Assembly (NCBI GenBank): GCA_040767805.1
Contig: JAXGNU010000005.1
Span: 64,001-128,000 of the forward strand
Reading direction: 5' to 3'
Length of the DNA stretch: 64,000 nt
Source: Thermovirgaceae bacterium
Lineage (GTDB): Bacteria; Synergistota; Synergistia; Synergistales; Thermovirgaceae
The notes under the pieces are model-generated. The model worked only from the letters and a program-made list of their open reading frames with translations, was not told the DNA's origin and ran no database searches. Positions within the stretch are counted from its first letter, which is position 1. Every line of letters starts with the position of its first letter. Positions 45,711 to 61,966 of this stretch are shown one piece after another. The translations under genes were made by a program, and so were the position numbers.

Positions 45711-45920
45711 GGCATCCCGCCCCCTTCTCGCCCGCCGACGGGCCGGCTCTTCAAGACGCGCCGGCCGGTCGACCAACAATTTTTAAATACTATATGAAAA
45801 ACCCTCGAAGGGCCAGTCTTCCGGCGTTGCGGCGCCGAAGGTCCGTTTCGATGGGGTGAGCCTGGTGCTATGATAACAGGGTAAATATCCCCGATCCGGA
45901 CAGGAAAGGAGCTGGAGGAG

Positions 45921-46388
45921 TTGGCGAAAAGGTCGTTTTCCTCCTGGACCGTCCTTTTTTTACTTCTCGTCTCCTTCAATGCCGCCCAGGCCCAGGATCT
46001 TTCCGGTTACTGGGATGTCAAGGTGCAAGGCGCCGATCATTTCACCGACAGGGAACCCTCCCAGGTGCCCATCGCTGAGACGGAGACCTTCATGCAGATC
46101 GACCGCGACAACGGGAAGGTGGTGATCACCTTCGGCGGTTTCGGGGGGGTCCACTCCGCCACGATCTTCAAGGGGGCGGCGGGAGAGGACCGCTTCGTGG
46201 CGACCTGGTGGTACGAGGCCTACCCCTACGAGACCAAGGTCCTCACGGGGCTGTACGAACCTTCCAGCGGCAAGCTAAGGGGGAGGATGATCTACCCCAG
46301 GGTCTCCGACAGGCCCGGGATTGCGCCGGGCTGGGTGGATGTCGAATACGTGGCTACCAGGAGGACCGTCATGGCGCCCAGCCGTTGA
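45921..46388 (+). CDS. Hypothetical secreted beta-rich protein
   Basis: RBS before TTG; signal peptide ending AQA; no recognised family. Confidence 0.6.
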   Translation: MAKRSFSSWTVLFLLLVSFNAAQAQDLSGYWDVKVQGADHFTDREPSQVPIAETETFMQIDRDNGKVVITFGGFGGVHSATIFKGAAGEDRFVATWWYEAYPYETKVLTGLYEPSSGKLRGRMIYPRVSDRPGIAPGWVDVEYVATRRTVMAPSR

Positions 46389-46407
46389 GACCGGTCATCC
46401 ACGCCGT

Positions 46408-47610
46408 TCAAATGATAATGTTCCTCCTCCGGGCCATTTCGAGGACCCTCTCCTCGAGATCCGGGCCTTCCAGTTCGGCAGCGACATCCTTAAGAAGAAG
46501 GGGGATATCGAGGCCCTGGGGGCATTTCCCCAGGCACTGCCCGCACTCGACGCACTGGGAGGCGAAACCGCTCCCGCTCCTCTGCAAAACGCCGCTCATC
46601 CTCATCACGTAAGAGTCCTTGCCCCCCTCGAGGTCGCCGAAGAGGTGGACCCTGTCGAAGACCTCGAAGCAAGCGGGGATGTTAACCCCCGCGGGGCAGG
46701 GCATGCAGTAACCGCATCCGGAACAGCCGACCTTCATCAACTCCCTGTACCGGGCGGCTGCCCGCTTGACGAGGCCCCTTTCTCCGGGGGTCAGCGAATT
46801 GGGCAGGGCTTCGCCGGCTGTCCCCAGGTTCTCCTCTATGTGGGCTTCATCGTTCATGCCCGAGAGGACCATGACGACGCCGGGATGGTCCCAGACCCAG
46901 CGCAGGGCCCATTCGGCGGGGGTTCTCTTCAAGGGGGCCTCATCCCACAGGGCGGCGATCGGGGGCGGCGCCCCGGGCAAGCCCAGGTTCCCTCCCCGGA
47001 GGGGTTCCATGACGAAGACCCCCAGGCCCTTCGAGGCGGCGTACTCGAGCCCCCTGGTGCCGGCCTGGTTCTCCTCGTCCAGGTAGTTGTACTGGATGAG
47101 GCAGCATTCCCAGGGGTAGGCGTCGACGATGGGGGCGAAATCCGTCCCGAGGCCGTGGAAGGAGAATCCCGCGTTCACGATCCGGCCGTCGGCCTTGGCC
47201 CTGTCGAGGAAATCCCTTGCGCCGAGGGCGTCGAGGCGTTCCCATAGTGGCCCGGTGAGGGTGTGCAGGAGGTAGTAGTCGATGCGGTCTGTCTGGAGTT
47301 TCTCCAGTTGGGCCTCCAGGAAGCGGTCCATGTCGCTCCGGGACTTCACCAGGAAGGAGGGCAGCTTCGTGGCCAGCCTCACCCTCTCCCGGTAGCCGTC
47401 CCGGAGGGCCCTCCCGAGGAAGCTCTCGCTCTCCCCCCCGTGGTAGGTCCAGGCGGTGTCGATATAGTTGACGCCCCTGTCAATGGCGTACCGGACCTGG
47501 GCGGCGGCCCGCTCCTCGTCGATACGGCCTTCCTTCGTCGGGAGGCGCATGCACCCGAACCCCAGTATGGACAGTTCATCGCCCGTTTTCGGCACTTTGC
47601 GGTAGAGCAT
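46408..47610 (-). CDS. Aldo/keto reductase with C-terminal 4Fe-4S dicluster
   Basis: LGFGCMRLP, DTAWTY, MEPLRGG, CSGCGYCMPCP, CVECGQCLGKCP. Confidence 0.93.
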   Translation of the reverse strand: MLYRKVPKTGDELSILGFGCMRLPTKEGRIDEERAAAQVRYAIDRGVNYIDTAWTYHGGESESFLGRALRDGYRERVRLATKLPSFLVKSRSDMDRFLEAQLEKLQTDRIDYYLLHTLTGPLWERLDALGARDFLDRAKADGRIVNAGFSFHGLGTDFAPIVDAYPWECCLIQYNYLDEENQAGTRGLEYAASKGLGVFVMEPLRGGNLGLPGAPPPIAALWDEAPLKRTPAEWALRWVWDHPGVVMVLSGMNDEAHIEENLGTAGEALPNSLTPGERGLVKRAAARYRELMKVGCSGCGYCMPCPAGVNIPACFEVFDRVHLFGDLEGGKDSYVMRMSGVLQRSGSGFASQCVECGQCLGKCPQGLDIPLLLKDVAAELEGPDLEERVLEMARRRNIII

Positions 47611-47687
47611 CGCAAGGATCACCTCTTCCTGGAGAGCCGCCGAAGCCGCTCCCCCGGCGTTTCAGTCTCTTCGATTTAAGGTTTCAA

Positions 47688-48407
47688 TCATTCTTGGGGG
47701 TCTAGTCCACTTGGAGCAGGCGCCTTTCCGTTTTCTAGGATTTTCCAGAGGCTGTCCATGATGTGCTCCTGCATTAGGTCCCTTGCGCCTTTTGGATCCT
47801 TGTTCTTGATCTTGTCCAGGATCTCGGCGTGTTCGAGGGAAAATTTGCGGCGGTCCTCTATAGGCCATTCCTTGAATTTTTTTCTCTGAATCGAAATCTC
47901 CGCCCTGATCGAGTTGTAAAGCTGGATCAGGAGCTTGTTGCCCGAGAGTTTCACTATGGTGTCATGAAACCTGGCGTGAAGGTCAACATCAGGTTCCGGC
48001 AGGAGCTCGTCCTCCTTGAGGATTGCCTCCAGTTCAGAGATCGTTTCTTTTGTCGCTCGCTCGGAAGCCCAGTAGGCCGCCTGGGCTTCAATAAGAAGAC
48101 GGACCTCCATCAGCTCGATGAGTGAGGATCGTCCCGAAATGAGCTTGACAAGCTCTGTGTTGTGGATATTCCTCAAAGCATTGGGGGAGAGAAAAGTACC
48201 GTTGCCTGGACGGGGCTCGACTATCCCGAAGAAGGCGAGGGATTTCATTACTTCCCTGATCGAGTTGCGGCTCACCTGGAACTCTGAAGCCAACGCGCTC
48301 TCTCCAGGCATGCGGCTGCCTGGTTCCCAGTAACCTCTTTCAATGGCGGTCAACATCTGCGTCAGGACCGATTCGTAAAGGGTTGAACGCACAACCGGTT
48401 TGATCAT
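47688..48407 (-). CDS. FadR/GntR-family transcriptional regulator
   Basis: PGESALASEFQVSRNSIRE, GNGTF; FCD domain; divergent from the TRAP operon. Confidence 0.93.
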   Translation of the reverse strand: MIKPVVRSTLYESVLTQMLTAIERGYWEPGSRMPGESALASEFQVSRNSIREVMKSLAFFGIVEPRPGNGTFLSPNALRNIHNTELVKLISGRSSLIELMEVRLLIEAQAAYWASERATKETISELEAILKEDELLPEPDVDLHARFHDTIVKLSGNKLLIQLYNSIRAEISIQRKKFKEWPIEDRRKFSLEHAEILDKIKNKDPKGARDLMQEHIMDSLWKILENGKAPAPSGLDPQE

Positions 48408-48497
48408 TTCCTATCCTCTTTCTCTTGTTTTGTCGTTTGCTCCCAACGAGGGGGGGGAATCCCAAAAAGGGTAATCCATTCTTTTTCTCAAAATTAT

Positions 48498-49766
48498 GGA
48501 ATCTCTGAAAAAGTCCTCTAGAAACGGACCTTGACCTAGTAAAATATGGTTGTGACAGCCTTGGTTTGTCCATTCCAGCCTTCTGTACGACCATACCATC
48601 CTTTGAGGGAGCTGATCCCGCATGAAGAGCCAGAAGAGCCTTGCCAACGCCGTGACCTTCGAGAAGTTTAAAAAGACCACAAGGCGCGAGCAATTTCTGG
48701 CCGAGATGGAACAGGTCGTCCCCTGGAAGGAACTTTGCGCCCTCATTGAACCTTACTACCCCAAGCTGGGAAGGGGTAGACCTCCCATAGGACTGGAACG
48801 GATGCTTCGGATCCATTTCCTGCAGAGTTGGTTCAACCTCAGCGACCCCGGAGCCGAAGAAGCGCTCTACGATATGGAATCCATGAGGCGATTTGTTGGG
48901 ATAGACCTCGGCAACGAGCCTGTACCGGACGAAACGACGATCTGCAAGTTCCGCCACCTTCTCGAGGCCCATGACCTTGGCAAGATGATCTTCAGGGAGG
49001 TCAACGCCCACCTTGAATCAAGAGGTATGAGGCTCTCCGAGGGTACCATCGTTGATGCCACCATCATCAACGCTCCGTCTTCGACGAAGAACAAAGAGAA
49101 GAAGCGGGACCCAGAAATGCACTCCACGAAGAAAGGCAACCAGTTCTACTTCGGCATGAAGATCCACATAGGTGTCGACAAAGCCACTAAACTGGCCCAC
49201 AGCCTTGTCACTACGCCTGCCAACGTGCACGACTCGCATCTCATCGGCGAACTTCTTCATGGGGGAGAAAGCGGAGTATGGGGCGACTCGGCCTACATGG
49301 GCAAGACGGAAGAGATCAACGACAAGGCTCCCATGGCCTCGGATAACACGAACAAAAGGTCCACCAGAAACAGGAAGCTCACGGAAGAGGAGAAGGAAAG
49401 GAACAAGATGCTTTCCAAGACCCGCGTTCGGGTAGAACACGTCTTCGGTGTGGTCAAGAACGTATTCGGATACAGGAAGGTTCGCTACAAGGGTCTTGCG
49501 AAGAACACCAATGGCATCCATGTTCTCTTTGCTTTGTCTAACCTTTACATGGTCAGGAGGGAACTGCTCTCGCTCCTGGCAGGGGTGTAGTGTCCCTGGA
49601 TATGGGGAGAAAGGCCAGAAAAGGAAGCAAAAGGGGCGATACAATCCTCCGAAGGCCTTGAAATGATCTTCTTAAGACCGGAATAGCCTGACTTATCCAC
49701 AGGAAACGGATTCGGTTGTCAAGGTCCCAATGTTGCAACTATCAAGGTCTTTTGTTCAGAGGTTCC
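48498..49766 (+). mobile_element. Complete IS5-family insertion sequence (1269 bp)
   Basis: IRL GGAATCTCTGAAAAA versus IRR reverse complement GGAACCTCTGAACAA (13/15); 4-bp TSD TTAT at 48494-48497 and 49767-49770. Confidence 0.95.
48622..49590 (+). CDS. IS5-family DDE transposase
   Basis: RREQFLAEME, VPDETTI, VDAT, FGMKIHIGVD, GDSAY, RVRVEHVF, RYKG. Confidence 0.97.
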   Translation: MKSQKSLANAVTFEKFKKTTRREQFLAEMEQVVPWKELCALIEPYYPKLGRGRPPIGLERMLRIHFLQSWFNLSDPGAEEALYDMESMRRFVGIDLGNEPVPDETTICKFRHLLEAHDLGKMIFREVNAHLESRGMRLSEGTIVDATIINAPSSTKNKEKKRDPEMHSTKKGNQFYFGMKIHIGVDKATKLAHSLVTTPANVHDSHLIGELLHGGESGVWGDSAYMGKTEEINDKAPMASDNTNKRSTRNRKLTEEEKERNKMLSKTRVRVEHVFGVVKNVFGYRKVRYKGLAKNTNGIHVLFALSNLYMVRRELLSLLAGV

Positions 49767-49806
49767 TTATATATTAGAGCCCGTCAATGCTCCAATTTTA
49801 ATAAAG

Positions 49807-50716
49807 GGTGATTGCACCCTATTTGGCACTGGTATTAGGATGGTGCCATGGACCTCAAAGCCTATGAACACTTGATCCGTACCGAGTCTGCAGCCAGGAA
49901 ATTCATGTTGGGATTTTGCTGGAAAAACCAACAAAGATTTTGTCCTAAATGCAGACAAAGAAAACTTTACAGGCTTACTGACGGTAGACGTCGATGCTCC
50001 CGTTGCGGTTATACCTTCCACGACTTCTCCGGAAGGTGGATTAATCTGGTTGACCTTGACTGCGGACAGTGGCTTCGGCTAATAAAGCTCTTCGAGCTGG
50101 AGCTTTCATCCCGAAAGATCGCCCAACAGCTGTCCGTTTCATACAAGGTCGCCCACAGGGCTGTAATGGTTCTTAGAGGGGCCATAATGGCCCATGCACC
50201 CGACGCCCAAAAACTTCTGGGCGGCGAGGTGGAAATAGATGAATCCTATTTCGGCGGCAAACGTAAAGGCAAACGCGGCCGCGGCGCCTCCGGCAAGGTC
50301 CCGGTCTTCGGCATCCTGGAAAGGGACGGACTTGTTCACGTGGAGGCCGTCCCGAACGTAAGGGCCGAAACGCTCCTTGGCATGACCATCAAGAAGGTGC
50401 GCCGCGGAAGCATAGTCTACACGGACAAGTTCAAGGTCTACGATTCCCTTATGTTCTGCGGATACAGGCACCTCAAGGTGGATCACGGCAAAAGGGTCTA
50501 TGCCAGCGGCAAAGTCTACATCAACGGCCTGGAAGGCTTCTGGAGCTTTGCCAAGGAACGCCTTATCAAGCACCATGGTGTTTCAAGGACCTGGTTCCCT
50601 TATTACCTGAAAGAACTCGAGTTCCGGTACAATAACCGACGAAACGAAATATTCAATGTTCTCTGTCAGTATATATGTGACTTTACACCTCTTGTGCCAG
50701 ATAGGGAGTAATCACC
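49807..50716 (+). mobile_element. Complete IS1595-family insertion sequence (910 bp)
   Basis: 23-bp IRs GGTGATTGCACCCTATTTGGCAC / reverse complement GGTGATTACTCCCTATCTGGCAC (20/23); 8-bp TSD TAATAAAG at 49799-49806 and 50717-50724. Confidence 0.95.
49848..50711 (+). CDS. IS1595-family transposase
   Basis: Zn finger CPKC...CSRC, HTH, VEIDESYFGG, VYTD, NGLEGFWS. Confidence 0.95.
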   Translation: MDLKAYEHLIRTESAARKFMLGFCWKNQQRFCPKCRQRKLYRLTDGRRRCSRCGYTFHDFSGRWINLVDLDCGQWLRLIKLFELELSSRKIAQQLSVSYKVAHRAVMVLRGAIMAHAPDAQKLLGGEVEIDESYFGGKRKGKRGRGASGKVPVFGILERDGLVHVEAVPNVRAETLLGMTIKKVRRGSIVYTDKFKVYDSLMFCGYRHLKVDHGKRVYASGKVYINGLEGFWSFAKERLIKHHGVSRTWFPYYLKELEFRYNNRRNEIFNVLCQYICDFTPLVPDRE

Positions 50717-50914: not shown

Positions 50915-51436
50915 ATGACTGCAAAAGACGTTGTGAAAAGGCTTTGGTCAATGCTATACGAAATTCAGGGGTTTGTGTTGTTCATACTGATGCTTGGCGT
51001 AACGGTCCTCGTCTTTGTGCAGGTAATCATGCGGTATGTTCTTCATGCTCCTCTCATGGGCATTGAGGAACTGTTGCTTTTCCCGGCAATATGGCTCTAC
51101 CTCCTGGGAGGAGCAAGCGCTTCTATGGAAAGGACCCATATAGAGTGCAATGTGATCAATGTTTACGTGAAGGGTCCCCTCGCGCTCAAATTACTGGAGA
51201 TCCTGAAATCGTCCATCTCCCTGGGCGTATGCTTGTGGCTCACCTATTGGGCCTTTGAATACTTGCAGTATTCGTTGAGAGTTTGGAAACTCAGTAACCT
51301 CCTTTACATCCCCCTCTTCTTTGGCGAAAGCGCCCTCTTCATCTGTCTTACCCTTATGGCGGTTTACACCGCCGTGGAACTTGGAGACGACTTCCTTGGC
51401 CTCAGGGCTGCTTTAAAAAGCGAGGAGGCGGAATAG
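50915..51436 (+). CDS. TRAP transporter small permease (DctQ)
   Basis: QVIMRY, GIEEL, HI; 4 TM helices. Confidence 0.9.
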   Translation: MTAKDVVKRLWSMLYEIQGFVLFILMLGVTVLVFVQVIMRYVLHAPLMGIEELLLFPAIWLYLLGGASASMERTHIECNVINVYVKGPLALKLLEILKSSISLGVCLWLTYWAFEYLQYSLRVWKLSNLLYIPLFFGESALFICLTLMAVYTAVELGDDFLGLRAALKSEEAE

Positions 51437-51438
51437 CC

Positions 51439-52752
51439 ATGAGTCTCACGACAGTAATACTTCTCGATGTTCTGATCCTTATCCTTCTTTTGATCTTGAG
51501 TGTTCCACTGCCCTTCTGTTTTGGAGGCGCCCTGCTTTTTTTGACCCTATTCGGGAACGTGTCCATGGCCAGCATGATGATGTGGGGATTCAACCAGATG
51601 ATAGCCATGGTCCTCTTGGCCAGTCCCCTTTTCATTTTCGCCGGGCTACTCATGGCTAACAGCGGGATTGCTGACACGCTTTTAGATTTCGTGGATTTGT
51701 TCGTAGGAAGGATCAAGGGAGGATTGGGTGTCGTCAGTACAGTAACCTGCGCCATAATCGGGGCCATTTCGGGCAGCGGCTTTACCGGCGTAGCGGCCAC
51801 CGGGCCCATAATGGTTCCCCGGATGGTGGCCCAGGGTTACCCCAGGGGTTACGCCACGGCCCTGGTTACTGTTTCCTCCATCCTGGGACTACTGATACCG
51901 CCGAGTGTGACCATGATCATCTTCGGATGGATTACGGAGACATCGATCCTGGCCTGTTTCCTTTCCACGGTGGGGCCAGGGCTCCTGATCACCCTATCTC
52001 TATCGATCGTCAACCTCGTATGGGTCCGCAAGATGCCCGGTATTATCCTGGAAGACCTCGAGACGCATAAACAAAGAAGAAAGGAAATGCCCGCCCGTTT
52101 CTCCAAGGCCATCCCGGCCCTTTCTATTCCCTTCGTGATCTTGGGGGGGATTTACGGTGGAGTTTTTACTCCCACCGAAGCGGCCGCCGTGGCCGCGATC
52201 CTGGCCCTGCCGATAGGGTTCTGGGTGTACAAGGGGCTGAACCTCAAGAATTTCATCCCCCTCGTGAGAGAATCGGCAACGTCCGTAGGGGCCATTATGA
52301 CGATGATCCTTTTCACCCTGATCCTGAGCCAGACCTTCGTCATGCTCAGGGTTCCCCAAATGCTTGTACAAGTGGTGTTCCGTTTAACGGAGAACTACTG
52401 GCTGATCCTTTTCCTCATCAATATTTTTCTCTTCTTTGTAGGGATGATAGTCAATGACATTACGGGGATAATCCTGATCGCCCCTCTCCTTCTCCCCCTT
52501 GTCCGGGAGATGGGTATGAACCCGATCCAACTCGCGGCCATCATGGGAACCAACCTCGCCATGGGCGGTGTGACGCCTCCTTATGCCAGCATCCTCTATC
52601 TTGGGATGAGGGTAGGCAAATGTGAATTCACCGACATCTTCAAGCCGACCATGATTTTTTTGATCGTTGCCTATATCCCCATCATCTTCCTAACGACCTA
52701 TTGGGCTCCGCTCTCAATGTGGCTGCCGACGGTCCTCGGTTATGTGAAATGA
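51439..52752 (+). CDS. TRAP transporter large permease (DctM)
   Basis: PLFIFAG, GAISGS, LIPPS, FTPTEAA, VTPP. Confidence 0.95.
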   Translation: MSLTTVILLDVLILILLLILSVPLPFCFGGALLFLTLFGNVSMASMMMWGFNQMIAMVLLASPLFIFAGLLMANSGIADTLLDFVDLFVGRIKGGLGVVSTVTCAIIGAISGSGFTGVAATGPIMVPRMVAQGYPRGYATALVTVSSILGLLIPPSVTMIIFGWITETSILACFLSTVGPGLLITLSLSIVNLVWVRKMPGIILEDLETHKQRRKEMPARFSKAIPALSIPFVILGGIYGGVFTPTEAAAVAAILALPIGFWVYKGLNLKNFIPLVRESATSVGAIMTMILFTLILSQTFVMLRVPQMLVQVVFRLTENYWLILFLINIFLFFVGMIVNDITGIILIAPLLLPLVREMGMNPIQLAAIMGTNLAMGGVTPPYASILYLGMRVGKCEFTDIFKPTMIFLIVAYIPIIFLTTYWAPLSMWLPTVLGYVK

Positions 52753-52804
52753 GAAAAGGGGGGTTCCCCTGTTGTGACCCTCAGGTATCAAGGAGCGTGG
52801 TGAA

Positions 52805-53899
52805 ATGAAACCGGTAGTGACTGTTCTAGGTGCGGGAAATGGCGGACAGGCCCTGGCAGGTCACTTGGCGCTCAAAGGCTACAGTGTGCGGCTTTTTGAA
52901 CACCCCGATTTTGGAGATAAGGTCCCCGTCATAGAGGACATGGGCGGGATCGAATTGAGAGGTAAACTCGAAGGCTTCGGCGAACTCGAAAAAACCACGA
53001 CAAACGCCGCAGAGGCCCTGGCGGGGGCTGATGTCGTCTACGTTGCCGCGCCGTCTTTTGCTCAGAAACCCATCATCGATAAAGCAGGTCCTTATATTTC
53101 CGAAGGGATGAAAGTGGTGTTCCTACCGGGGAACTTCGGCTCCCTGGAAGCCGTTAACTGGCTGGATGCCGGGAAAAAAGAGGGGATCCTTTTGGGGGAG
53201 ACCAATACACTCCCCTATGCCTGTAGACAGATCGAACCCGGCATTGTGGACATCTGGGGGATCAAGACGAAGGTCTTGTTGGCGGCCCTGCCGTCAAAAA
53301 GGAACGGAGAACTGCTTGAAGCAGTGGGGGAAATGTTTCCCACCGCTATCGTGGAAGCGTCCAACGTCCTTGAGACTGGTTTTTCCAATATGAACATGGT
53401 GGTCCACTGCTCGACGATGATCCTGAATGCCGGACGCATTGAATCTGAAAAAGGTAATTTCCGTTTTTATACTGACGGAATGAGCCCATCGGTATGCAAA
53501 ATTTCTGAATTTGTCGATGCTGAAAGGATCGCCGTCGGGAAGGCTCTAGGTCTTAAGCTTCAGACAGAGATCCAGTGGCTTAGAGAAACTTACAGCCTGG
53601 AGGGTGAGACTCTCTACGAGGTTCTCCAGAGTAGCAACGTTTACGGAGGTCATGGTCCTGACGCTCCAAAAACCTTATCCCATAGGTACCTTACGGAAGA
53701 CGTTCCCTATTTGCTGGTGCCGGTGGCTTCCCTGGGACGTGCTCTCGGTGTGCCCTGTCCCGTGATCGAGAGCATAATTCTACTGGCGGGGAAGATCAAC
53801 GGCAGGGATCACTTTTCTGAAGGGCGGACAATGGAAAGGATGGGATTCCGCTCCGCCGGTATCGAAAGCATCAGGGAAAAGCTGGTGGAAGGAGCATAG
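52805..53899 (+). CDS. NAD/NADP-dependent opine (octopine/nopaline) dehydrogenase family protein
   Basis: GAGNGG, ETNTLPYACR, NMNMVVH, RFY.DG, DAERI, RYLTEDVPY. Confidence 0.9.
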   Translation: MKPVVTVLGAGNGGQALAGHLALKGYSVRLFEHPDFGDKVPVIEDMGGIELRGKLEGFGELEKTTTNAAEALAGADVVYVAAPSFAQKPIIDKAGPYISEGMKVVFLPGNFGSLEAVNWLDAGKKEGILLGETNTLPYACRQIEPGIVDIWGIKTKVLLAALPSKRNGELLEAVGEMFPTAIVEASNVLETGFSNMNMVVHCSTMILNAGRIESEKGNFRFYTDGMSPSVCKISEFVDAERIAVGKALGLKLQTEIQWLRETYSLEGETLYEVLQSSNVYGGHGPDAPKTLSHRYLTEDVPYLLVPVASLGRALGVPCPVIESIILLAGKINGRDHFSEGRTMERMGFRSAGIESIREKLVEGA

Positions 53900-53917
53900 C
53901 TCGGGGAGGATCAGGGG

Positions 53918-55504
53918 ATGGCTGTTCTCGAAGTACCGGGAAGCATTTTTGACATACTGGGCCCCATCATGACGGGACCCTCAAGCTCCCACACTGCCGG
54001 AGCCGTCCGCGTAGGTCTCATGGCGCGCGGCATCGCCGGGGGGGCCCTGAAGGGGGCCGTCATCACCTTTTACGGGTCCCTGGCCGAGACCTACAAGGGG
54101 CACATGACGGACTCGGGAGTCGTCGCGGGGCTTCTGGGCATGGGTGTCGACGATCCCGGCATAAGGGAAGCCCTCGAAAGCGCGGAAAAAAGAGGCATCT
54201 CCATCCGGGTCCTTGCTCTTCCCTCGGAAACGAAAAACCCCAACACGATAGTAGTCGAACTCGAGACCCGCGAGGGGGAAACGCGGCGCGTGGAGGGCGT
54301 CACCATTGGCGGCGGGGAGATACAGGTCTCCTCCATCGATGGTTTCCCCGTGGACTTACGGGGGAAGCACGACGAGGTCCTTTTATTCACCGGGCCCGGC
54401 GCGGCCTTCCCCGATGAGGCGGCGGCCATCGCCGCCGGGAGTGAGCCCTCCGTCTCGGAAGGCCCTGGCGGCGCGAGGCTGTTCGTGATCAGGCCCTTCG
54501 CGTCCCCTGAAAGATCCGTGCTAGAGGGGCTGGGAAAGGCGAACGGTGTCCTGGGGGTCAGCTTCCTCCCGCGGCTTTACGACTACGGAAAGGCGGACGG
54601 TCCCGCCCTTTTCAGCACCGTGGAGGGGATGGTCCGGCTTTCAGGGGAGATCGGGCTCCTCCCGGCCTTGGAAAATTACGAAGCAGGGCGCAGCGGGCTG
54701 AGCAGGGAAGAGACTCGGGAGAAACTGGCCCGTGTCTGGTCCGTCATGGAGGGATCGACGAAGGCGGGCCTTTCGGGCCGCAACAGGATGGTCGGCGGCT
54801 TTATGCCGGGCGATGACGGGCGCAAACTCCTCGATGCCTTGAACTCGGGGGTCACCCTGTCGGGGCCGGTCCTGCCCTTGGCCGTAGCGAAAGCCATTTC
54901 CGCCATGGAGGTCAACGCTTCCATGGGTCGGGTCTGCGCCGCGCCGACGGCGGGCTCCTGCGGGGTGCTGCCGGGGGTCCTTTCCGCTATGAAGGAACAG
55001 AGGTCTTTGCAAGACGATACTCTGGTGGACGCACTGCTGGTGGCGGGTGTCTACGGGGCCCTAGTAGCTTTCAGGGCGCCCATATCCGGGGCCCTGGGGG
55101 GGTGCCAGTCCGAGATAGGGGTGGCCTCGGCGATGGCCGCCGCCGCCCTGGCCTACCTAGGGGGAGGATCGGCCGAGGCGACGGCCCACGCCATGGCGCT
55201 GGCCTTGAAGAGCCTCTTGGGGCTCGTCTGTGACCCCGTGGCCGGCCCCGTCGAAATCCCCTGCATCAAGCGAAACGCCGTGGGCGTAGCCAACGCCTTC
55301 GCCGCCGCCGACATGGCGCTGGCCGGGATAAGAAGCGTAATCCCCCCCGATGAAGTGATCGATGCCCTGGTGAACGTCCAGCAATTAATGCCGGCTGAGC
55401 TCAGGGGTTCCACCCAGGCGAGCCTGGGGGTGACGAAGACCGCGATACGCTTGAAAGAAGAGTGGCTCTCGCGGTGCAGGCACTGCAAGGAAGAATGTCC
55501 TTGA
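53918..55504 (+). CDS. Fe-S L-serine dehydratase, fused beta+alpha subunits
   Basis: IFDILGPIMTGPSSSHTAG (beta); APTAGSCG, GGCQSE, GLVCDPVAG.VE.PC.KRN (alpha). Confidence 0.92.
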   Translation: MAVLEVPGSIFDILGPIMTGPSSSHTAGAVRVGLMARGIAGGALKGAVITFYGSLAETYKGHMTDSGVVAGLLGMGVDDPGIREALESAEKRGISIRVLALPSETKNPNTIVVELETREGETRRVEGVTIGGGEIQVSSIDGFPVDLRGKHDEVLLFTGPGAAFPDEAAAIAAGSEPSVSEGPGGARLFVIRPFASPERSVLEGLGKANGVLGVSFLPRLYDYGKADGPALFSTVEGMVRLSGEIGLLPALENYEAGRSGLSREETREKLARVWSVMEGSTKAGLSGRNRMVGGFMPGDDGRKLLDALNSGVTLSGPVLPLAVAKAISAMEVNASMGRVCAAPTAGSCGVLPGVLSAMKEQRSLQDDTLVDALLVAGVYGALVAFRAPISGALGGCQSEIGVASAMAAAALAYLGGGSAEATAHAMALALKSLLGLVCDPVAGPVEIPCIKRNAVGVANAFAAADMALAGIRSVIPPDEVIDALVNVQQLMPAELRGSTQASLGVTKTAIRLKEEWLSRCRHCKEECP

Positions 55505-55535
55505 CATAATTTCAGAGAATGTGGGGGAGGATAAC

Positions 55536-56534
55536 ATGTTTAAAACAAGACTATTGAGCCAGGAAGAAGTAAAGAAACTGATTTCAATGAAGGACGTGAT
55601 CGATGCGGCGGAGAAGACCTTCAGGGGCATGGGAGAGGAGACGGTGGTCAACCCCACGAAAGTCGGCCTCGACCTTGGAGAGACAGCGGAGTTCCCACCC
55701 TACGAGGGATTCATGAATGCTATGCCCGCTTATATCGGCTGGCTGGACTCGGCGGGGATCAAGTGGGCGGGCGGTTTCCTGGGCGAGAGAAAGAAAAGGG
55801 GTCTTCCTTACATTACCTCCTTGATCCTTCTCATCGATCCGAAGATAGGTAATTTCCGGGCCGTAATGGATGGCGCCTACATCACCAATATGAGGACCGG
55901 GGCCCAGACAGCGGTAGCCCTGAAGTACCTCCACCCGGAGAAAAACTTGAAGCTGGGACTTTTCGGGGCCGGGATGCAGGGGCATACCCAGACCATGGCG
56001 ATAGCGGAACTCTTCCATATCGACGAGGTCCACGTCTACGATATTTCCCCCGAGGCCAGCAGGAAATACGCGGAAGACATGAAGGATACGGTCCAGGGGA
56101 AGATCGTCATAGCGAAAACCCCGGAAGAGGCTGCGACCGGTGCCGACGTCGTCGTCTGCGTAACCCAGTCCAAGGACAAATTTGTCAAGGATTCCTGGAT
56201 CAAACCCGGTGGGATCCTCTTCCCCATGGGTTCGTACCAGGAGTGTGAAGATGCTTACATCCTCAACGCCGACAGGATCATCGTGGACCATGTCGGACAA
56301 TGCCTGCACAGGGGAGCACTGAAGGAACTGAGCGAAGCCGGAAAGATCACCGAAAAGAGTATCTACGCCACGATAGGAGAGATCGTGGCCGGGAAAAAGA
56401 AGGGTCCGGGATCGCCGTCGGAAAGGACTCTTTGCATTCCCATAGGGACCGGGGCTATGGACATAGCGGTCGCAACGATTGCTCTCAAGAAAGCGGAAGA
56501 GAAGGGAATCGGGGGGTTCTACGAATTCGCGTGA
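55536..56534 (+). CDS. Ornithine cyclodeaminase/mu-crystallin family imine reductase/dehydrogenase, paralog 1
   Basis: AMPAY, GIKW, TNMRTGA, GAGMQG, GEIVAGK, G.GAMDIA. Confidence 0.92.
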   Translation: MFKTRLLSQEEVKKLISMKDVIDAAEKTFRGMGEETVVNPTKVGLDLGETAEFPPYEGFMNAMPAYIGWLDSAGIKWAGGFLGERKKRGLPYITSLILLIDPKIGNFRAVMDGAYITNMRTGAQTAVALKYLHPEKNLKLGLFGAGMQGHTQTMAIAELFHIDEVHVYDISPEASRKYAEDMKDTVQGKIVIAKTPEEAATGADVVVCVTQSKDKFVKDSWIKPGGILFPMGSYQECEDAYILNADRIIVDHVGQCLHRGALKELSEAGKITEKSIYATIGEIVAGKKKGPGSPSERTLCIPIGTGAMDIAVATIALKKAEEKGIGGFYEFA

Positions 56535-56572
56535 GAAGTTCCTCAACCCTTATAAACACAGGAGGTGATGTG

Positions 56573-57568
56573 GTGGCCACTCTTCTTGTCACGCAGAAAG
56601 AAATCGTCGAACTGGTTTCCATGGCTGAAGTGATCGACGCAGTGGAGAAAACCTTTCGGGGCATGGGGGAAGGATCGGTCATCAACCCCACGAAGGTTCA
56701 TCTGGACCTAGGGGATGGTGAAAGCGGTCTCCCCTATAACGCCGGAATGAACTCAATGCCGGCCTACGTCGGTTGGCTTGAGTCAGCAGGGATTAAGTTC
56801 ATCGGGGGATGGGAGGATAACCCCTCAAAAGGAATGCCTTACATCAGCGGGATGATCCTTCTGGTTGACCCCAGGGATGGTCGATTTCTGTCCGTCATGG
56901 ATGGGACCCTTGTGACGGCTCTCAGAACAGGGGCCCAGACGGCGGTCGCCCTGAAATACTTGGTATCAGAACCCCGGAACCCTGTAATAGCTCTCTATGG
57001 AGCCGGGGCCCAGGGACGGACCCAGGTCGAAGCCATTGCTACCGCTTTCAAGGTGAAGGAATTCCGGGTCTTCGATATCAGGAAAGAAGCCTCCCAGGCA
57101 TTTGCAGAGGAAATGGCTCCAAAGATGGGGGTGCCTATAACGGTCGTGGACCGCCCGGAAGACGCCGTCAAGGAAGCCCATGCCGTTGTGTCGGTAACCC
57201 ACGCCCGTAACAAGTTCATCAGGAACGACATGATAGGTGAAGGTGTCACCGTCTGTCCCCTGGGCTCTTTCAGGGAGTGTGAGGATGAACTGATCCTTTC
57301 AATGGACAAGATCATTGTGGATCATGTCGGCCAAACCCTGCACAGGGGAGCGCTCAAGGATGTCAGCGAATCAGGCCGTCTCGGGGAGGAGGACCTGTAC
57401 GGGACCATAGGGGAGGTCGTTGCGGGAAAGAAGAAGGGCAGGGAAAACTCAAAGGAAAGGATCCTCTGTATTCCCATAGGTACAGGGGCAATGGACGTTA
57501 CCGTCGCCACCCTGGCTTACCGAAAAGCTCTTGAAAAAGGCGTGGGAAAGGAATTTCCCTTCATCTAG
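56573..57568 (+). CDS. Ornithine cyclodeaminase/mu-crystallin family protein, paralog 2
   Basis: SMPAY, GIKF, TALRTGA, GAGAQG, GEVVAGK; GGAGG RBS before GTG. Confidence 0.92.
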   Translation: MATLLVTQKEIVELVSMAEVIDAVEKTFRGMGEGSVINPTKVHLDLGDGESGLPYNAGMNSMPAYVGWLESAGIKFIGGWEDNPSKGMPYISGMILLVDPRDGRFLSVMDGTLVTALRTGAQTAVALKYLVSEPRNPVIALYGAGAQGRTQVEAIATAFKVKEFRVFDIRKEASQAFAEEMAPKMGVPITVVDRPEDAVKEAHAVVSVTHARNKFIRNDMIGEGVTVCPLGSFRECEDELILSMDKIIVDHVGQTLHRGALKDVSESGRLGEEDLYGTIGEVVAGKKKGRENSKERILCIPIGTGAMDVTVATLAYRKALEKGVGKEFPFI

Positions 57569-57674
57569 GTCAAGCAGTTTTTTGACCTGGTATTGGGGAA
57601 ATCTCACCGGTGACAACGGGATGTTGCCGGTGAATGGCAAGGACAAAATTAGTAGAAAAGGGGAGGGAAAAGAG

Positions 57675-58685
57675 ATGAGAGCGAAATGGTTGGTTCTTGG
57701 GACAGCGTTGCTGGTTGCCATCATGGTTATAGCGACCGGCACGGCTGTCGCAGCGCAGTACCAGTGGAAGATCGGGCATATAAGGCCTACCGGGACGGAT
57801 GTCGACAATGACGTAAACTGGCTTGTCGAGAAGATCAAGGAAGAGTCCGGCGGACGGATCGTGATCGACATCTTCCCCGCAAGCCAACTGGGCGACTACA
57901 CTGTGGTCCAGGAAAGGGTATCGATGGGCGCCATCGAGATGCAGCTGGCCTGCCTGGGTACGACGGTCTCCAAGGCCCTGAACCTTCCCGGAGCTCCGTA
58001 CCTTGCCACTAATTACGAAGAAGCGGAGAAGCTCTTCGGCCCGGGTGGGATCGTGTACGAAATAGTGGATGAGATCCTCGACCAGAAGGAGAACATACAC
58101 CTCATCGCAGGATGGCCTTGCTATTTCGGAGGGATCGCCCTGGGCAAGGAAGCCCCGGCTCCAGGAGATCCCGATGTTCCCAAGAACATCAAGATCCGCG
58201 TCCCGCCGATCAAGTCCTACGAATTGGTCGCCGATGCACTGGGCTACATGGCCACCCCTATCCCCTGGGCCGAAACCTTCACAGCCATGCAGACGGGCAT
58301 AGTTGACGGGGCTATCGGGGCGGGAGCCGAGGGGTACTATGCGAACCTCCGGGACCTCATGAAGGTCTACCTCGTCATCAACGACCACTTTGAAATGTGG
58401 TTCTGGTACATGAACAAGGACCTCTGGAACAAGCTCTCCAAGGAGGACCAGGAACTACTCACCAAAGCGGGTCGAGAACTCGAGGCCAGGAGATGGAAAG
58501 CAGCTCCCGAAGCCCAAATAGCAAACGAAAAGAGGTTGGCCGATTTTGGTGTAAAGGTTATCTACATCAAGCCGGAAGAATTCAAGGCCATAGTGAAAAA
58601 GGCGGAAGAATTAGTGTGGCCGGGCATCAAGGGAGATATCGGGGAAGAGTACTTTAACAGGACCATGGAAGCGCTGAAGAAATAG
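57675..58685 (+). CDS. TRAP transporter substrate-binding protein (DctP)
   Basis: Signal peptide, SGGRI, FPASQLG, KIRVP, TAMQTGIVDG. Confidence 0.93.
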   Translation: MRAKWLVLGTALLVAIMVIATGTAVAAQYQWKIGHIRPTGTDVDNDVNWLVEKIKEESGGRIVIDIFPASQLGDYTVVQERVSMGAIEMQLACLGTTVSKALNLPGAPYLATNYEEAEKLFGPGGIVYEIVDEILDQKENIHLIAGWPCYFGGIALGKEAPAPGDPDVPKNIKIRVPPIKSYELVADALGYMATPIPWAETFTAMQTGIVDGAIGAGAEGYYANLRDLMKVYLVINDHFEMWFWYMNKDLWNKLSKEDQELLTKAGRELEARRWKAAPEAQIANEKRLADFGVKVIYIKPEEFKAIVKKAEELVWPGIKGDIGEEYFNRTMEALKK

Positions 58686-58731
58686 CCTGACAATGCTTGG
58701 CGCTTTCCGCTTCACCGTTCATTGTTGATGG

Positions 58732-58760
58732 GCCGGGGGGCGCAAGTCCCCCGGCTTGTT
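58732..58760 (+). terminator. Hairpin after dctP (weak terminator or mRNA stabiliser)
   Basis: GCCGGGGG...CCCCCGGC followed by TTGTT. Confidence 0.45.
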
Positions 58761-58840
58761 CCAAGGACCTTGGGAAAGGCCGTAGTCTGGCGATTGGAAA
58801 GAAGAGTCTTCAAAGAGGGGCTTAAGAATTCGAATGTTGG

Positions 58841-60217
58841 GTGGTACGAGAGGGTGTGAATACCGTGGTTGTTGAAACCTGTCTTGAAAAGCAAAAGAAG
58901 GAAGGCGCCGTTGTAACAGAAGGGCCGTTGAAAATACGGAAGGTATTGGTAAAGGACGTGCAATTCGGCGAAGAGACGGAAATCAGGGGCGAAACCCTTT
59001 TCCTGAATGCCGATGATATGGAAAGAGAATTGCTCGAGGACAAACATCTCCTTTCCGTCGATGTGAAGATCGCCAGGCCCGGGGAGAGCATCAGGATAAT
59101 CCCCGTAAAGGATATCCTGGCGCCGGCGGTTAAAGTGGACGGTCCCGGTTGTGTCTTCCCGGGCTTTATCGGAAACCCCACCAGGACGATCGCCGGGAGG
59201 GGTACTACGGCGTTCCTCGAAGGCGTGGCCGTGGTGACCTCGGGAAGATTGGTCAACTTCCAGGAGGGGCTGATCGACATGACCGGTCCCGGGGCCGAGT
59301 ATTCGATCTTCTCCAGGTTGGTCAACGTGGTCCTCGTCCTTGAACCCGTTGAAGGGCTCGGGAAGTACGAACATGAGAGGGTCGTCAGGGAAGCCGGCGT
59401 TAAGGCGGCTGCTTTCATAGGGAAGGCCGCCGCAACGGCTGAGTATTTCGAGGAGACGGTCTATGCCAACGAAGCCATCCCCGAGATCCACTCCAAATAC
59501 CCTGACCTGCCGAAAGTGGTCTATGTAAGGCAGGTCCTGGCTCAAGGACTGCTCCATGACAATTACCTTTACGGATTGAACGCAAGGGAAGGTGCTGTCC
59601 CTCTGTATATGCAGGCCACGGAACTCTTTGACGGGGCCATTGTCAGCGGGAACTGCGCCGCCCCCTGTCATAAACACACCACCTATCATCACCAAAGGGA
59701 CCCCATTTCCGAGGACCTTCTCGCTGAGCACGGGAAGTCCCTGGCTTTCCTGGGTATCATCGCCCAACCCGTGAGGACGGCTTTCTCTGAAAAAGAAAGG
59801 AATTCTTTCCAGGTCCTCAAAATCGCGAAAAGCCTGGGAGCCGACGGGGCCATAATCGCCGAGGACGGAGGCGGCAATCCCGAGTGTGACCTGATGCTTA
59901 CGGCCAGTATTCTCGAACAGGCCGGCATCAAGACCGTCATCGTGACCGACGAATACGCCGGTGGCGACGGGGCGTCTCCCGGGCTGGCGGATATTTCTCC
60001 ATACGCCGATGCCGTTGTCACCAACGGTAACGGGAACGAACGCGTGGTATTGCCCCCGATGGAAAAAGTCATCGGACACTTGGAGACTATCGAAGTGATC
60101 ACCGGTGGTCATTCGGGAAGCCTTTTGAAGGATGGATCGATAAACATGGAAATAGCCGGCATCATGGGCTCCACGAACGAACTGGGGATGGAAAACCTCT
60201 CCACAAGGGCAATATGA
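58841..60217 (+). CDS. grdE: Glycine/sarcosine/betaine reductase component B proprotein (GrdE-like; start uncertain)
   Basis: VKDVQFG, PGESIRIIPVKD, QEGLIDM.GPGA.YS, DGAIVSGNC cleavage motif, GNP..D, TDE.AG.DG. Confidence 0.92.
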   Translation: MVREGVNTVVVETCLEKQKKEGAVVTEGPLKIRKVLVKDVQFGEETEIRGETLFLNADDMERELLEDKHLLSVDVKIARPGESIRIIPVKDILAPAVKVDGPGCVFPGFIGNPTRTIAGRGTTAFLEGVAVVTSGRLVNFQEGLIDMTGPGAEYSIFSRLVNVVLVLEPVEGLGKYEHERVVREAGVKAAAFIGKAAATAEYFEETVYANEAIPEIHSKYPDLPKVVYVRQVLAQGLLHDNYLYGLNAREGAVPLYMQATELFDGAIVSGNCAAPCHKHTTYHHQRDPISEDLLAEHGKSLAFLGIIAQPVRTAFSEKERNSFQVLKIAKSLGADGAIIAEDGGGNPECDLMLTASILEQAGIKTVIVTDEYAGGDGASPGLADISPYADAVVTNGNGNERVVLPPMEKVIGHLETIEVITGGHSGSLLKDGSINMEIAGIMGSTNELGMENLSTRAI

Positions 60218-60234
60218 GGGACGGTGCTGGGAAG

Positions 60235-61584
60235 ATGAAAAAGTACAGGATCGTTCACTATATCAACCAATTCTTTGCCGGCATCGGGGGTGAAGAAAAA
60301 GCGGGGATCGGTCCCTGGTTCGAGGACAAACCGGTGGGTTTCGGCAAGCAGATCGAGGCGGCTTCCGGCGGCCGTCTTGAGGTCGTGCGGACGGTGATAT
60401 GCGGGGACAACTATGCTGCGGAAAACCTTGAGGAATTTGAGAGGACCATTCTCCCCTGGATAAAAGAAGTTGACGCTGATCTTCTTTTCGCCGGCCCGGC
60501 CTTCGGTGCCGGGCGTTACGGGACCGCATGCGGGACCCTTTGTGACCGCGTTTCATCCCTATTGGGTCTGATTGCGATCTCTGCAATGCACGAGACAAAT
60601 CCCGGGGTGGATGTAGCGAAAAGGACGACTTACGTTTTGAAGACCGGAGATTCGGCGAGAAAAATTGGCAAGGTGGTTCAAGATATGATCCGGTTCGGCC
60701 TCCGTCTCCTCGATGGAGAAGAAATAGGAAGCCCGGAAGTGGAAGGATATCACCCTCGTGGAGTCCGGATAAACTTCCGAAGAAAAGAGCGGGGATCGAA
60801 AAGGGCCGTATCCATGCTCCTCAAGAAAATTCACGGCGAGCCTTTTGAGACGGAACTACCCATGCCTGTCTATGACCTCGTCCCGCCTGCGCCTCCCGTG
60901 GCGAACCTTGAGGAAGCCCTTATTGCCATCGGCACGGAGGGTGGCATCGTCCCCAGGGGTAACCCCGATCGGATCGAAGCTCACAATGCTTCCAAATGGT
61001 GTGCCTATCCCCTGGTGGGTTTGGACAACCTCAAGAAAGGCGATTACGAAGTCGCCCACGGCGGTTATGACTTGGTCCATGCCAACGAGGACCCCGACAG
61101 GGTTCTGCCCCTGGATGGCATGCGGCGCCTTGAAAAAGCGGGCAGGTTCCGAAAACTGCTTGAGAAATATTTCGTCACCGTGGGAAACGTAACGGCGGTG
61201 AAATCAGCTGAACGATACGGGCGCGAGATCGCGGCGATGCTCCACGATGAGGGAGTCGATGGTGTGGTGATGACCTCCACCTGAGGCACCGGCACGCGTT
61301 GCGGCGCAACGCTGGCAAGGGAGATCGAAAGATCCGGGATACCGACAGCCCTGATCACGGCCATACCCAGCATCGCCCTCACCGTCGGAGCCAACAGGAT
61401 AGTCCAGGGGGTGGCGATACCTCACCCCGTCGGTTCCATCACGGAGGACAGCTACGAGGCGGAGATGGAGATAAGGATGGAGATATTGGAGAGAGCCCTG
61501 AACGCCATCTGCACGCCCATCACCGAGCAGACCGTTTTCCGCAAGGGAGAACAGGTGGAGGTGGCTGGTGCTGGAAGGGAGTAA
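60235..61584 (+). CDS. grdB: Selenoprotein B of a glycine/sarcosine/betaine reductase-family enzyme; UGA at 61282-61284 read as Sec350 (449 aa)
   Basis: HYINQFFAG.GGEE, GPAF.AGRYG, HGGYD; the frame continues through TGA as TST-U-GTGTRCGA...VGANRIV...IPHPVG to TAA at 61582-61584. Confidence 0.93.
61296..61312 (+). promoter_or_regulatory. Bacterial SECIS hairpin
   Basis: GCGTTGC-GGC-GCAACGC, starting 11 nt after the UGA, with a G-initiated loop. Confidence 0.8.
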
Positions 61585-61966
61585 GAACCTCCCAAGGAGC
61601 AGGATCATCACTAACAACCCACTCGTGATCGAAAGGTTCAAAGAGAGCATTCCAGTAGAAGGGGGCCCCGCCGAGGTTTTCAAGGAGGCCCTGCAGCACC
61701 TTGAAAAGGGCGCTGTTCTCTCGGGGCATCCCCTTTCTGGAAGCATAAGGCTCACAGCGAACCCTTACCGTTCCATCGTCGTCGATGCTCCGGAAGGGGC
61801 CGCCCTGGACAGGAATGGAGTAGCCGCCCTCCTGGACGCGATCGATCGTGTCGAGAGAGCGTCGAGAGAAAGGATCGCGCCGCAGGAATGCCTGGAGGAT
61901 TACGCGTTCATAGATTTGGACCTTTTGAAGGCCGGTATCAGCGACGACCCGGAGAAAAAGGTTTGA
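61568..61966 (+). CDS. grdX: GrdX-family protein
   Basis: IITNNPLV, HPLSGS...PYRSI, DYAFID. Confidence 0.85.
   Translation: MLEGSKNLPRSRIITNNPLVIERFKESIPVEGGPAEVFKEALQHLEKGAVLSGHPLSGSIRLTANPYRSIVVDAPEGAALDRNGVAALLDAIDRVERASRERIAPQECLEDYAFIDLDLLKAGISDDPEKKV

Follow-up and report, generated by a model that had tools for sequence, protein, structure and literature searches.

To our knowledge, the established substrates of protein B in the glycine reductase (Grd) systems are glycine, sarcosine and betaine only, to which proline may be added for the related Prd system and fluoroacetate as a recent case. The genomes of amino-acid fermenters are rich in protein B paralogues that lack an assigned specificity. 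In the occ and noc systems of Agrobacterium, a transporter and an opine-cleaving oxidoreductase are held together under a dedicated regulator. Here we describe an operon in which a divergent, selenium-dependent protein B module stands beside genes for a transporter, a predicted opine dehydrogenase and alanine dehydrogenase (AlaDH)-type enzymes. It lies in a stretch of 64,000 nucleotides (the window) from contig C5 (JAXGNU010000005.1) of a Thermovirgaceae bacterium of the phylum Synergistota, whose assembly comprises 1.65 Mb and is 80.6% complete. A preliminary description had seen in this operon a candidate Stickland-type fermentation of an imported opine. The protein B clade concerned can now be defined by sequence markers, namely UxxGxxC at the selenocysteine (Sec, U) of GrdB and Cys-AAPCHK after the pyruvoyl residue of GrdE, and in two phyla it is associated with opine dehydrogenases of the NAD-dependent kind and with enzymes of the AlaDH type.

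An operon with a divergent protein B module

The operon (50915-61966, + strand) consists of ten co-directional genes with intergenic spacing of -17 to 155 nt. Their products were assigned to families with Pfam and NCBIfam profiles; scores are in bits, and '>' or '<' relates a score to the curated cut-off. The first two genes encode the small and large permeases of a tripartite ATP-independent periplasmic (TRAP) transporter, DctQ (50915-51436; PF04290, 65.9) and DctM (51439-52752; PF06808, 276.5; TIGR00786, 301.3 > 268.45). They are followed by genes for a predicted NAD(P)-dependent opine dehydrogenase of the Octopine_DH family (Odh, 52805-53899; PF02317, 163.2), a putative fused beta-alpha Fe-S L-serine dehydratase with SDH_beta and SDH_alpha domains (Sda, 53918-55504; TIGR00718, 268.1 > 243.2; TIGR00719, 135.6 < 161.2), and two OCD/mu-crystallin dehydrogenases, the AlaDH/LhpI-like OCD1 (55521-56534; PF02423, 192.7) and OCD2 (56570-57568; PF02423, 186.8). 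The start of OCD2 was revised, the most likely codon being the GTG at 56570 behind AGGAGG. The next gene encodes the TRAP solute-binding protein DctP (57675-58685; PF03480, 124.1; NF037995, 102.2 > 50; start revised to the most likely ATG at 57675), and DctP, DctQ and DctM are thus all encoded in the operon. The last three genes specify a divergent GrdE-type pyruvoyl proprotein of protein B (58841-60217; PF09338, 542.5), a GrdB-type selenoprotein B (60214-61584; PF07355, 474.4) with its Sec codon TGA at 61282-61284, and a GrdX family protein (61568-61966; NF038093, 82 > 40).

These assignments confirm the ten genes, their order and their single orientation as given in the preliminary description. 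That account had also noted a run without grdA, grdC/D or thioredoxin genes, and indeed none of these occurs in 50.9-62 kb; homologues were found on contig C3 of the same genome. Its call of a selenium-dependent GrdB was upheld, as reading the in-frame TGA as Sec gave an end-to-end alignment with TIGR01918 (510 > 65.45, model positions 1-431 of 431). The neighbourhood proved to be conserved: the window-type gene set recurs, in an order that is identical or almost so, in the Synergistota loci L009, L010 (with its halves divergent), L011 and L013, and the arrangement is therefore not due to chance.

GrdB was compared with its relatives at 79 related loci and with the four paralogues of its own genome. 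From this set 83 Sec-containing sequences were extracted, and the Sec of the window protein aligned with the Sec of all 83. Its Sec motif is UGTGTRC, where the canonical form is UGTCTRC, so that UxxCxxC is absent from it. UGTGTRC was present in 22/22 sequences that are at least 55% identical to the window GrdB, and UGTCTRC in 51 of the 57 others. In a maximum-likelihood tree of 79 GrdB rows the 22 UGTGTRC sequences were monophyletic, with a Shimodaira-Hasegawa-like approximate likelihood ratio (SH-aLRT) of 100. The UxxCxxC motif has been regarded as conserved in GrdB, GrdF and GrdH (Wagner et al. 1999, cited in PMC6778437), and in the portion of that source available to us its loss is taken to indicate a pseudogene. 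Here UxxGxxC is kept across Synergistota and in three deltaproteobacterial or Thermodesulfobacteriota loci, and it is therefore a feature of the lineage and not of decay. GrdX was found in 22/22 clade loci, in 21 by clustering and in the remaining one (L015) by tblastn.

The window GrdB fell below the cut-offs of the models for glycine (TIGR01917, 494.1 < 602.2), sarcosine (GrdF, NF040794, 519.1 < 800) and betaine (GrdH, NF040795, 448.7 < 775). Six other GrdB proteins of the clade scored 486-550 on TIGR01917, and the seven scored members (7/7) missed the glycine, sarcosine and betaine cut-offs alike. Among the control GrdB proteins run in the same batch, six exceeded the glycine cut-off and one was also above the sarcosine cut-off; the GrdF of Sedimentibacter (L043) reached 856.8, above the sarcosine cut-off of 800. 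The best NCBIfam match of the window GrdE was sarcosine GrdG (NF040793, 451.6 < 780). Identity with fluoroacetate reductase was rejected, since GrdE scored 129.1 against the FarE model (NF053623) with its cut-off of 675. A search for solved structures related to GrdE or GrdB gave none at E <= 0.01.

The Asn-Cys pyruvoyl site of GrdE (SGN followed by the Cys) was kept in 90/90 sequences. After this Cys, CDK was found in 50/90 sequences and no Asp in the other 40/90. The residues that follow the Cys depend on the type, and are VSACDKN in glycine, VAPCDKV in sarcosine and AAPCHK(H/N) in window-clade proteins, with AAPCHKH in the window itself; in Bacillota, AGPCHKN was seen at locus L050 and VSPGSKT in a second clade described below. 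To judge from these residues, the replacement of Asp near the pyruvoyl group by His or Ser in the Odh-linked groups may reflect a changed substrate pocket. Together, the profile match, the position of Sec and the pyruvoyl site make the window protein a member of the Grd protein B superfamily. Because it misses the three cut-offs and has no UxxCxxC, annotation as a glycine, sarcosine or betaine reductase would be inappropriate. The proposal that this GrdB stands apart from canonical glycine reductase is thus borne out by a separate clade with full SH-aLRT support. In the deltaproteobacterial locus L026, grdC adjoins the clade grdEB (NF040746, 630.1 > 450), as does, in L028, a protein from the homologue cluster to which this GrdC belongs; acetyl-phosphate-forming Grd chemistry is therefore favoured for the clade.

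Linkage of the clade to opine and OCD dehydrogenases

The 22 clade loci contained an Octopine_DH homologue in 13 cases, an OCD protein in 12, the fused serine dehydratase in eight and an SDH_alpha-only relative in four. A TRAP component was present in 19 and a TAXI-type TRAP in two more. Distribution was surveyed in 151 evenly sampled genomes of Synergistota. The UGTG codon pattern gave 19 sites in 17 of these genomes, and a reversed control pattern gave one match. At 12 of the 19 sites, in at least nine genera, an Octopine_DH gene was found within 10 kb on the same contig. At seven of the 19 it immediately follows grdX, at approximately 0.8-1.3 kb from the Sec codon; in one of these, on contig C2 of our genome, it is encoded on the other strand. 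When GrdE was used instead of GrdB, Octopine_DH occurred within 10 kb of 0/50 GrdE of the Cys-xxxCDK type and of 18/40 Asp-less GrdE, several of these loci ending early at contig ends. The counts are given without a P-value because the relatives are not independent. In the genome studied here, both Octopine_DH genes adjoin its two UGTG-type GrdEBX loci.

Close homologues of OCD1 (E <= 1e-110) were found in 28/151 genomes, and 40 of the 47 genes lay within 10 kb of an Octopine_DH gene, with two more at 10.5 kb. The pairing of Odh with OCD is the tightest gene pairing in the survey. A role of OCD1 as a housekeeping alanine dehydrogenase was rejected, as its close homologues are confined to those 28 genomes.

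Odh has full-length homology to the Arthrobacter N-(1-D-carboxyethyl)-L-norvaline dehydrogenase 1bg6 (210.6 bits). It has an N-terminal NAD_Gly3P_dh_N domain in addition to the Octopine_DH domain, as expected of the family. The residues aligned to 1bg6 His202, Arg292 and Asp297, which we take to be the catalytic residues of that enzyme, are conserved. Identity with the Arthrobacter sp. 1C enzyme is roughly 40%, as estimated by eye from the alignment; unlike that enzyme, Odh sits in the operon of an anaerobe together with a TRAP transporter and a Grd module. The Arthrobacter enzyme is described as catabolic, reversible and NAD+-dependent, and as supporting growth on N-(1-D-carboxyethyl) amino acids (PMC4575208, in the part accessible to us). 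In other Synergistota genomes Octopine_DH genes reach up to eight copies.

The best relatives of OCD1 in the Protein Data Bank (PDB), at about 160-164 bits, were the Thermococcus pyrroline-2-carboxylate (Pyr2C) reductase 6t3e (163.9 bits) and the Archaeoglobus AlaDH 1omo/1vll. Both OCD proteins missed the cut-off of the archaeal alanine dehydrogenase model TIGR02371 (409.15), OCD1 with 214.6, its best NCBIfam match, and OCD2 with 196.3. In contrast to the Archaeoglobus AlaDH/Thermococcus LhpI subfamily, the two proteins here are tandem paralogues, 54% identical to each other and linked to Octopine_DH. The OCD superfamily also includes the strombine and tauropine dehydrogenases of sponges (PMC4141209, as far as its accessible text goes). 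The genome has nine OCD/mu-crystallin paralogues, and an alanine dehydrogenase of the AlaDh_PNT type was not found in it.

DctP proteins adjacent to Grd genes and those embedded with Odh formed two sister groups within one well-supported family, which fits related ligands. The only TRAP transporter of the window operon is of the Odh-embedded kind.

Analogous gene sets were found in Bacillota. A second GrdEB clade there (UGTCTRC in GrdB; VSPGSKT in GrdE; 14 GrdE) stands behind a sigma-54 activator, and was seen at L059, L063, L070, L077, L060, L066, L084 and L067, where the glycine, sarcosine and betaine cut-offs were missed. The downstream genes included an AlaDh_PNT alanine dehydrogenase at five loci, an NhaC-type transporter at five and Octopine_DH at four, with six of the 14 loci ending before any downstream gene is visible. 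The AlaDh_PNT proteins scored 392.7, 379.6 and 369.8 on TIGR00518, which has a cut-off of 391.85. At a further Bacillota locus, L050, the genes present are those for a sigma-54 activator, odh, dctQMP, sda, grdE and grdB. A protein B, a transporter, an opine dehydrogenase and an AlaDH-type enzyme have thus been united on at least three occasions, from parts only some of which are homologous. No other observation argues as strongly for a functional link, or for alanine and pyruvate as nodes of the pathway.

Genomic setting and transcripts

The genome encodes the machinery for Sec decoding, with tRNA-Sec, SelB (338.1 > 242.25) and two SelD proteins. One SelD gene, outside the window at C5:30458-31390, has an in-frame TGA and probably encodes a selenoprotein itself. 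In the nearest named records, which are metagenome-assembled genomes of Synergistota, GrdE is 96%, 80% and 72% identical to that of the window.

The single GRDA match of the genome lies on contig C3, in the gene order grdX, trxA, grdE, grdA(Sec), grdB(Sec), grdC, grdD; the GrdB of this locus passes the glycine cut-off (673.8 > 602.2). There are four GrdB paralogues in all, two of the UGTG type and two of the UGTC type, comprising the canonical protein on C3, one of another type on C13, the window protein on C5 and one on C2. This number agrees with the accepted view that protein B modules are exchangeable and share proteins A and C. Five other Synergistota genomes each had one UGTG-type and at least two UGTC-type GrdB. 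As UGTC-type copies co-exist in all six genomes checked, the UGTG clade is an additional module and not the sole protein B.

The C2 locus (L008:5862-18761) contains the second UGTG-type grdEBX together with an HTH-cupin regulator, a distant Octopine_DH, three OCD proteins, an SDH_alpha-only protein and dctQ/dctM. The C13 proteins (L007:6404-11141) belong to a third Synergistota type of GrdEB (GrdB with ...CGASM..., GrdE with Cys-VSSCDKN; 577.5 < 602.2 on the glycine model), which was also seen at L049, L061, L069, L073, L080 and L087. This type has its own GrdX, and in the present genome an AMP-binding acyl-CoA ligase adjoins it.

A regulator gene of the GntR/FCD family (47688-48407, - strand; Pfam GntR and FCD) is divergent from the operon. 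Its homologues (cluster c8) were found at 14 related loci, and in L009 and L011 they lie approximately 300 nt upstream of dctQ. In this genome two insertion sequences (IS) separate the regulator from dctQ. One is an IS5-family element (48494-49766, + strand; transposase 48622-49590; NF033581, 364.3 bits) with TTA at both flanks, and the other an IS1595-family element (about 49767-50716, + strand; transposase 49848-50711; NF033547, 153.6 bits). In contigs from the RNA libraries of runs X2 and X3, position 48493 is followed directly by 49767 and the 1273 nt of IS5 are absent, so that an IS5-free form exists and the copy is polymorphic. The IS1595 region showed much raised depth and loose contig ends at 49766 and 50716/50717. 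Two genes that are kept in L009 and L011, for an FAA-hydrolase-family protein and an EamA transporter, lie on the 3' side and are convergent with the operon. Upstream of the regulator, the stretch 43945-47622 (- strand) encodes an M20 peptidase, an L-alanine exporter of the AlaE family and a protein in which an aldo/keto reductase is joined to a 4Fe-4S dicluster domain. If alanine were a product of the pathway, such an exporter would be in keeping with it. Elsewhere the window contains housekeeping genes (dnaN, gidA, gidB, parB, serA-like and the phosphoenolpyruvate carboxykinase gene) and an unrelated TRAP/GntR set.

The metatranscriptomic libraries X2-X4 contained 0.47-0.77 of the words sampled from the cluster, and their contigs covered 30, 30 and 28 of its 30 bins, respectively; the depth of such contigs does not serve to rank genes. 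Contig 23 of X3 runs from 58539 to 59045 and bridges the gap between dctP and grdE, which is compatible with one transcript. As a weaker point, the terminator scan detected no terminator-like site on the + strand between these two genes. The promoter and terminator scans as a whole gave counts of 10 against a shuffled expectation of 6.7 and of 11 against 17.7, and were not otherwise used.

A candidate pathway, its alternatives and known systems

We give an even chance to the reading that the operon serves the import and NAD-linked cleavage of a strombine- or alanopine-like opine, coupled to a reductive branch that yields acetyl-phosphate. The TRAP transporter would import an N-carboxyalkyl amino acid, that is an opine-type imino diacid, most simply a compound like strombine or alanopine. 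Odh, perhaps with an OCD protein of opposite stereospecificity, would split the opine with NAD(P)+ to pyruvate, one or more amino acids and NAD(P)H, and alanine and serine would be converted to pyruvate by OCD and Sda, respectively. The reducing equivalents would be spent by GrdEB and GrdX, acting with GrdA, GrdC/D and thioredoxin supplied in trans from the C3 locus, in a reductive cleavage of a carboxymethyl-N bond that would give acetyl-phosphate and hence ATP.

This scheme has two variants, which differ in the target of GrdEB. In one, Odh would free glycine, as from strombine, and GrdEB would reduce that glycine; known chemistry and the position of odh directly after grdX in many loci favour this variant. 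In the other, GrdEB would cleave the imported N-carboxymethyl compound itself, freeing alanine or serine. It is favoured by the altered residues near Sec and the pyruvoyl group, by the co-existing UGTC-type GrdB, and by minimal dctQMP-grdEBX loci, including one in a genome without Octopine_DH. Carried further, the second variant would make the UxxGxxC GrdEB a fourth substrate class of Grd, an N-carboxymethyl-amino-acid reductase acting on strombine-type opines or imino diacids and forming acetyl-phosphate and alanine or serine. OCD and Sda would oxidize or deaminate the amino acid thus freed, a single imported opine would be electron donor and acceptor at once, and the whole would amount to an intramolecular Stickland fermentation. 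The active-site changes fit such a reductase on sequence grounds, and we regard the proposal as possible but doubtful.

Several observations weigh against the opine-cleavage reading. At seven of the 19 UGTG sites no Octopine_DH lay within 10 kb, and genome G142 (91% complete) has a UGTG-type GrdB and zero Octopine_DH matches. Octopine_DH was found in 70/151 genomes (at least 150 matches) and this GrdB in 17, so that most Odh/OCD modules work without it. Loci of the Pyramidobacter/Fretibacterium type hold only dctQMP-grdEBX, and minimal TRAP-GrdEBX loci without Odh or OCD are represented by L017, L018, L021, L022 and L025. (A RidA/YjgF-family gene adjoins the minimal loci L017, L021 and L025, from Pyramidobacter and gut Synergistaceae.) The deltaproteobacterial/Thermodesulfobacteriota clade loci L026 and L028 have a TAXI-TRAP and no Odh. 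A URO-D-like gene of the methyltransferase type was observed beside L026 and beside the Synergistales locus L023, and such genes, with the TAXI-TRAP, hint at methylated or other N-substituted glycines as substrates at those loci. The linkage of the Grd clade with Octopine_DH is thus real but one-sided. Of the link between Grd and opine dehydrogenases put forward in the preliminary description, its conservation stands (12/19 against 0/50 for GrdE of the canonical type) and an obligatory association does not (7/19 without it, and G142). Likewise, grdEBX is in part distributed independently of odh and ocd (17 against 70 of 151 genomes), and on the side of transcription the dctP-grdE gap is bridged by an RNA-library contig.

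Further points on the same side concern the components. The lost middle Cys of UxxCxxC, a motif thought to contact GrdA (PMC13188914, in its accessible part), could mean a different partner or mechanism. The sole grdC and grdD (C3, L006:5400-8130, - strand) are split across several frames, with at least three frame changes in grdC, and a second copy was not found in this 80.6%-complete assembly; the neighbouring grdE, grdA and grdB look intact, and the broken genes reflect either an assembly error or decay of protein C. The best solved relatives of DctP (an isethionate binder and other DctP entries) reached approximately 84 bits and bind unrelated ligands; they are too distant, and assignment of the ligand by PDB similarity was dropped. 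The hairpin that follows the UGA did not exceed shuffled sequence in stability (z = -0.55) and was not counted as evidence for a selenocysteine insertion sequence. RNA-library contigs cannot prove a single transcript, and DNA carry-over into them is possible. Nor are we aware of any opine source in digesters or sludge. A review names Cloacibacillus as a possible degrader of carboxymethyl-lysine (PMC10198061). Carboxymethyl-lysine as a substrate is no more than a lead, because the reported products retain the carboxymethyl group and no locus was linked to the degradation.

The same enzymes could instead form a hub of serine, alanine and glycine metabolism without any imported opine. Odh would then use NADH to condense pyruvate with an amino acid and act reversibly as an electron sink, as it does in invertebrates under anaerobiosis, while Sda would convert serine to pyruvate, OCD would interconvert alanine and pyruvate, and GrdEB would be an operon-coupled protein B isoenzyme acting on free glycine. 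All the enzymes touch pyruvate, alanine, serine or glycine, the AlaE-type L-alanine exporter is encoded 5 kb upstream, the pyruvoyl site is retained as in the glycine type, and the only known chemistry of the closest models is glycine reduction. However, a GrdB above the glycine cut-off is already encoded beside grdA in this genome, the clade is altered at the residues near Sec and pyruvoyl and misses that cut-off in 7/7 cases, and the minimal dctQMP-grdEBX loci point to the imported compound as the substrate of the reductase. TRAP systems import, and we know of no DctP-type importer of amino acids. We therefore consider a hub without opine import unlikely. More unlikely still is a GrdEB that acts on some other N-substituted glycine (sarcosine-like, methylated or a xenobiotic aminoacetate) taken up by TRAP, with Odh, OCD and Sda as a separate imino-acid module fused into the operon in this lineage only. 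The minimal loci, the absence of Octopine_DH from G142, the URO-D-like genes by L026 and L023, the best NCBIfam matches to sarcosine GrdF and GrdG, and the distinctness of the Grd-adjacent and Odh-embedded DctP groups, both of which occur in L015, would all agree with it. Against it speak the Octopine_DH genes directly after grdX at 7/19 sites, an Odh linkage that appears in three separate GrdE groups and in none of the 50 CDK-type proteins, and the TRAP of the operon, which is only of the Odh-embedded kind.

A pathway for cyclic imino acids (hydroxyproline, proline or pipecolate) is suggested by the best solved relative of OCD1, the Thermococcus Pyr2C reductase, and by the C2 locus, where an AcnX protein, related to cis-3-hydroxy-L-proline dehydratase, is encoded beside OCD, TRAP and UGTG-type GrdEBX genes. 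The OCD proteins would be pyrroline- or piperideine-2-carboxylate reductases, and GrdEB would act in a Prd-like manner on the ring or its product. That AcnX scored 202.9 < 700, though, and the window cluster has none; the matches of the window GrdE and GrdB to PrdA and PrdB were weak (70.8 < 700 and 96.3 < 300), the gene neighbours at L026 and L028 point to acetyl-phosphate chemistry, and those pathways offer no role for Octopine_DH or serine dehydratase. Such a pathway is improbable. Chance adjacency, in which amino-acid fermentation genes merely cluster in small Synergistota genomes, would be raised by the expansions of Octopine_DH (up to eight per genome) and OCD (nine here). A random site would have Octopine_DH within 10 kb in an estimated 2% of cases (two genes in 1.65 Mb), against the observed 12/19, and the linkage is found in Bacillota with different accessory genes, which makes the lack of any functional connection very improbable.

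If the opine-cleavage reading is true, opines and N-carboxyalkyl amino acids would have an ATP-yielding anaerobic fate in digesters, sediments and guts, and many Synergistota Octopine_DH genes (70/151 genomes) would gain a first physiological role. Already, the question of what the extra Grd modules act on is reduced to a short list of testable candidates. A search of the literature outside subscription journals and supplements found no paper joining 'glycine reductase' with 'opine dehydrogenase' or 'octopine', and queries on GrdB and opines, Synergistetes and TRAP, strombine and alanopine catabolism, and Stickland reactions with opines or iminodiacetate gave no description of this linkage in the same literature.

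Among known systems, the protein B of the clostridial glycine, sarcosine and betaine reductases (GrdB/GrdE, GrdF/GrdG and GrdH/GrdI) resembles that of the window in its two subunits, in an end-to-end hidden Markov model match, and in the Sec position, the Asn-Cys site and the presence of GrdX; GrdA, GrdC/D and thioredoxin would likewise come from a shared locus. The window differs in having UxxGxxC for UxxCxxC and Cys-AAPCHK for Cys-VSACDK or Cys-VAPCDK, and its module stands amid TRAP, Octopine_DH, OCD and Sda genes and not with grdA, grdC and grdD. The fluoroacetate reductase (far) operon of Cloacibacillus and Pyramidobacter, whose enzyme is derived from Grd protein B and acts on an X-CH2-COOH substrate (PMC10838667, in the sections accessible to us), is another such module in Synergistota; it has an antiporter and a radical-SAM protein, and no TRAP, Odh or OCD. 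Unlike the Agrobacterium occ and noc systems, which have ABC uptake and respiration-linked enzymes, the opine dehydrogenases being flavin-dependent (PMC4575208), the operon described here has a TRAP transporter, NAD(P)-dependent dehydrogenases and a selenoprotein branch.

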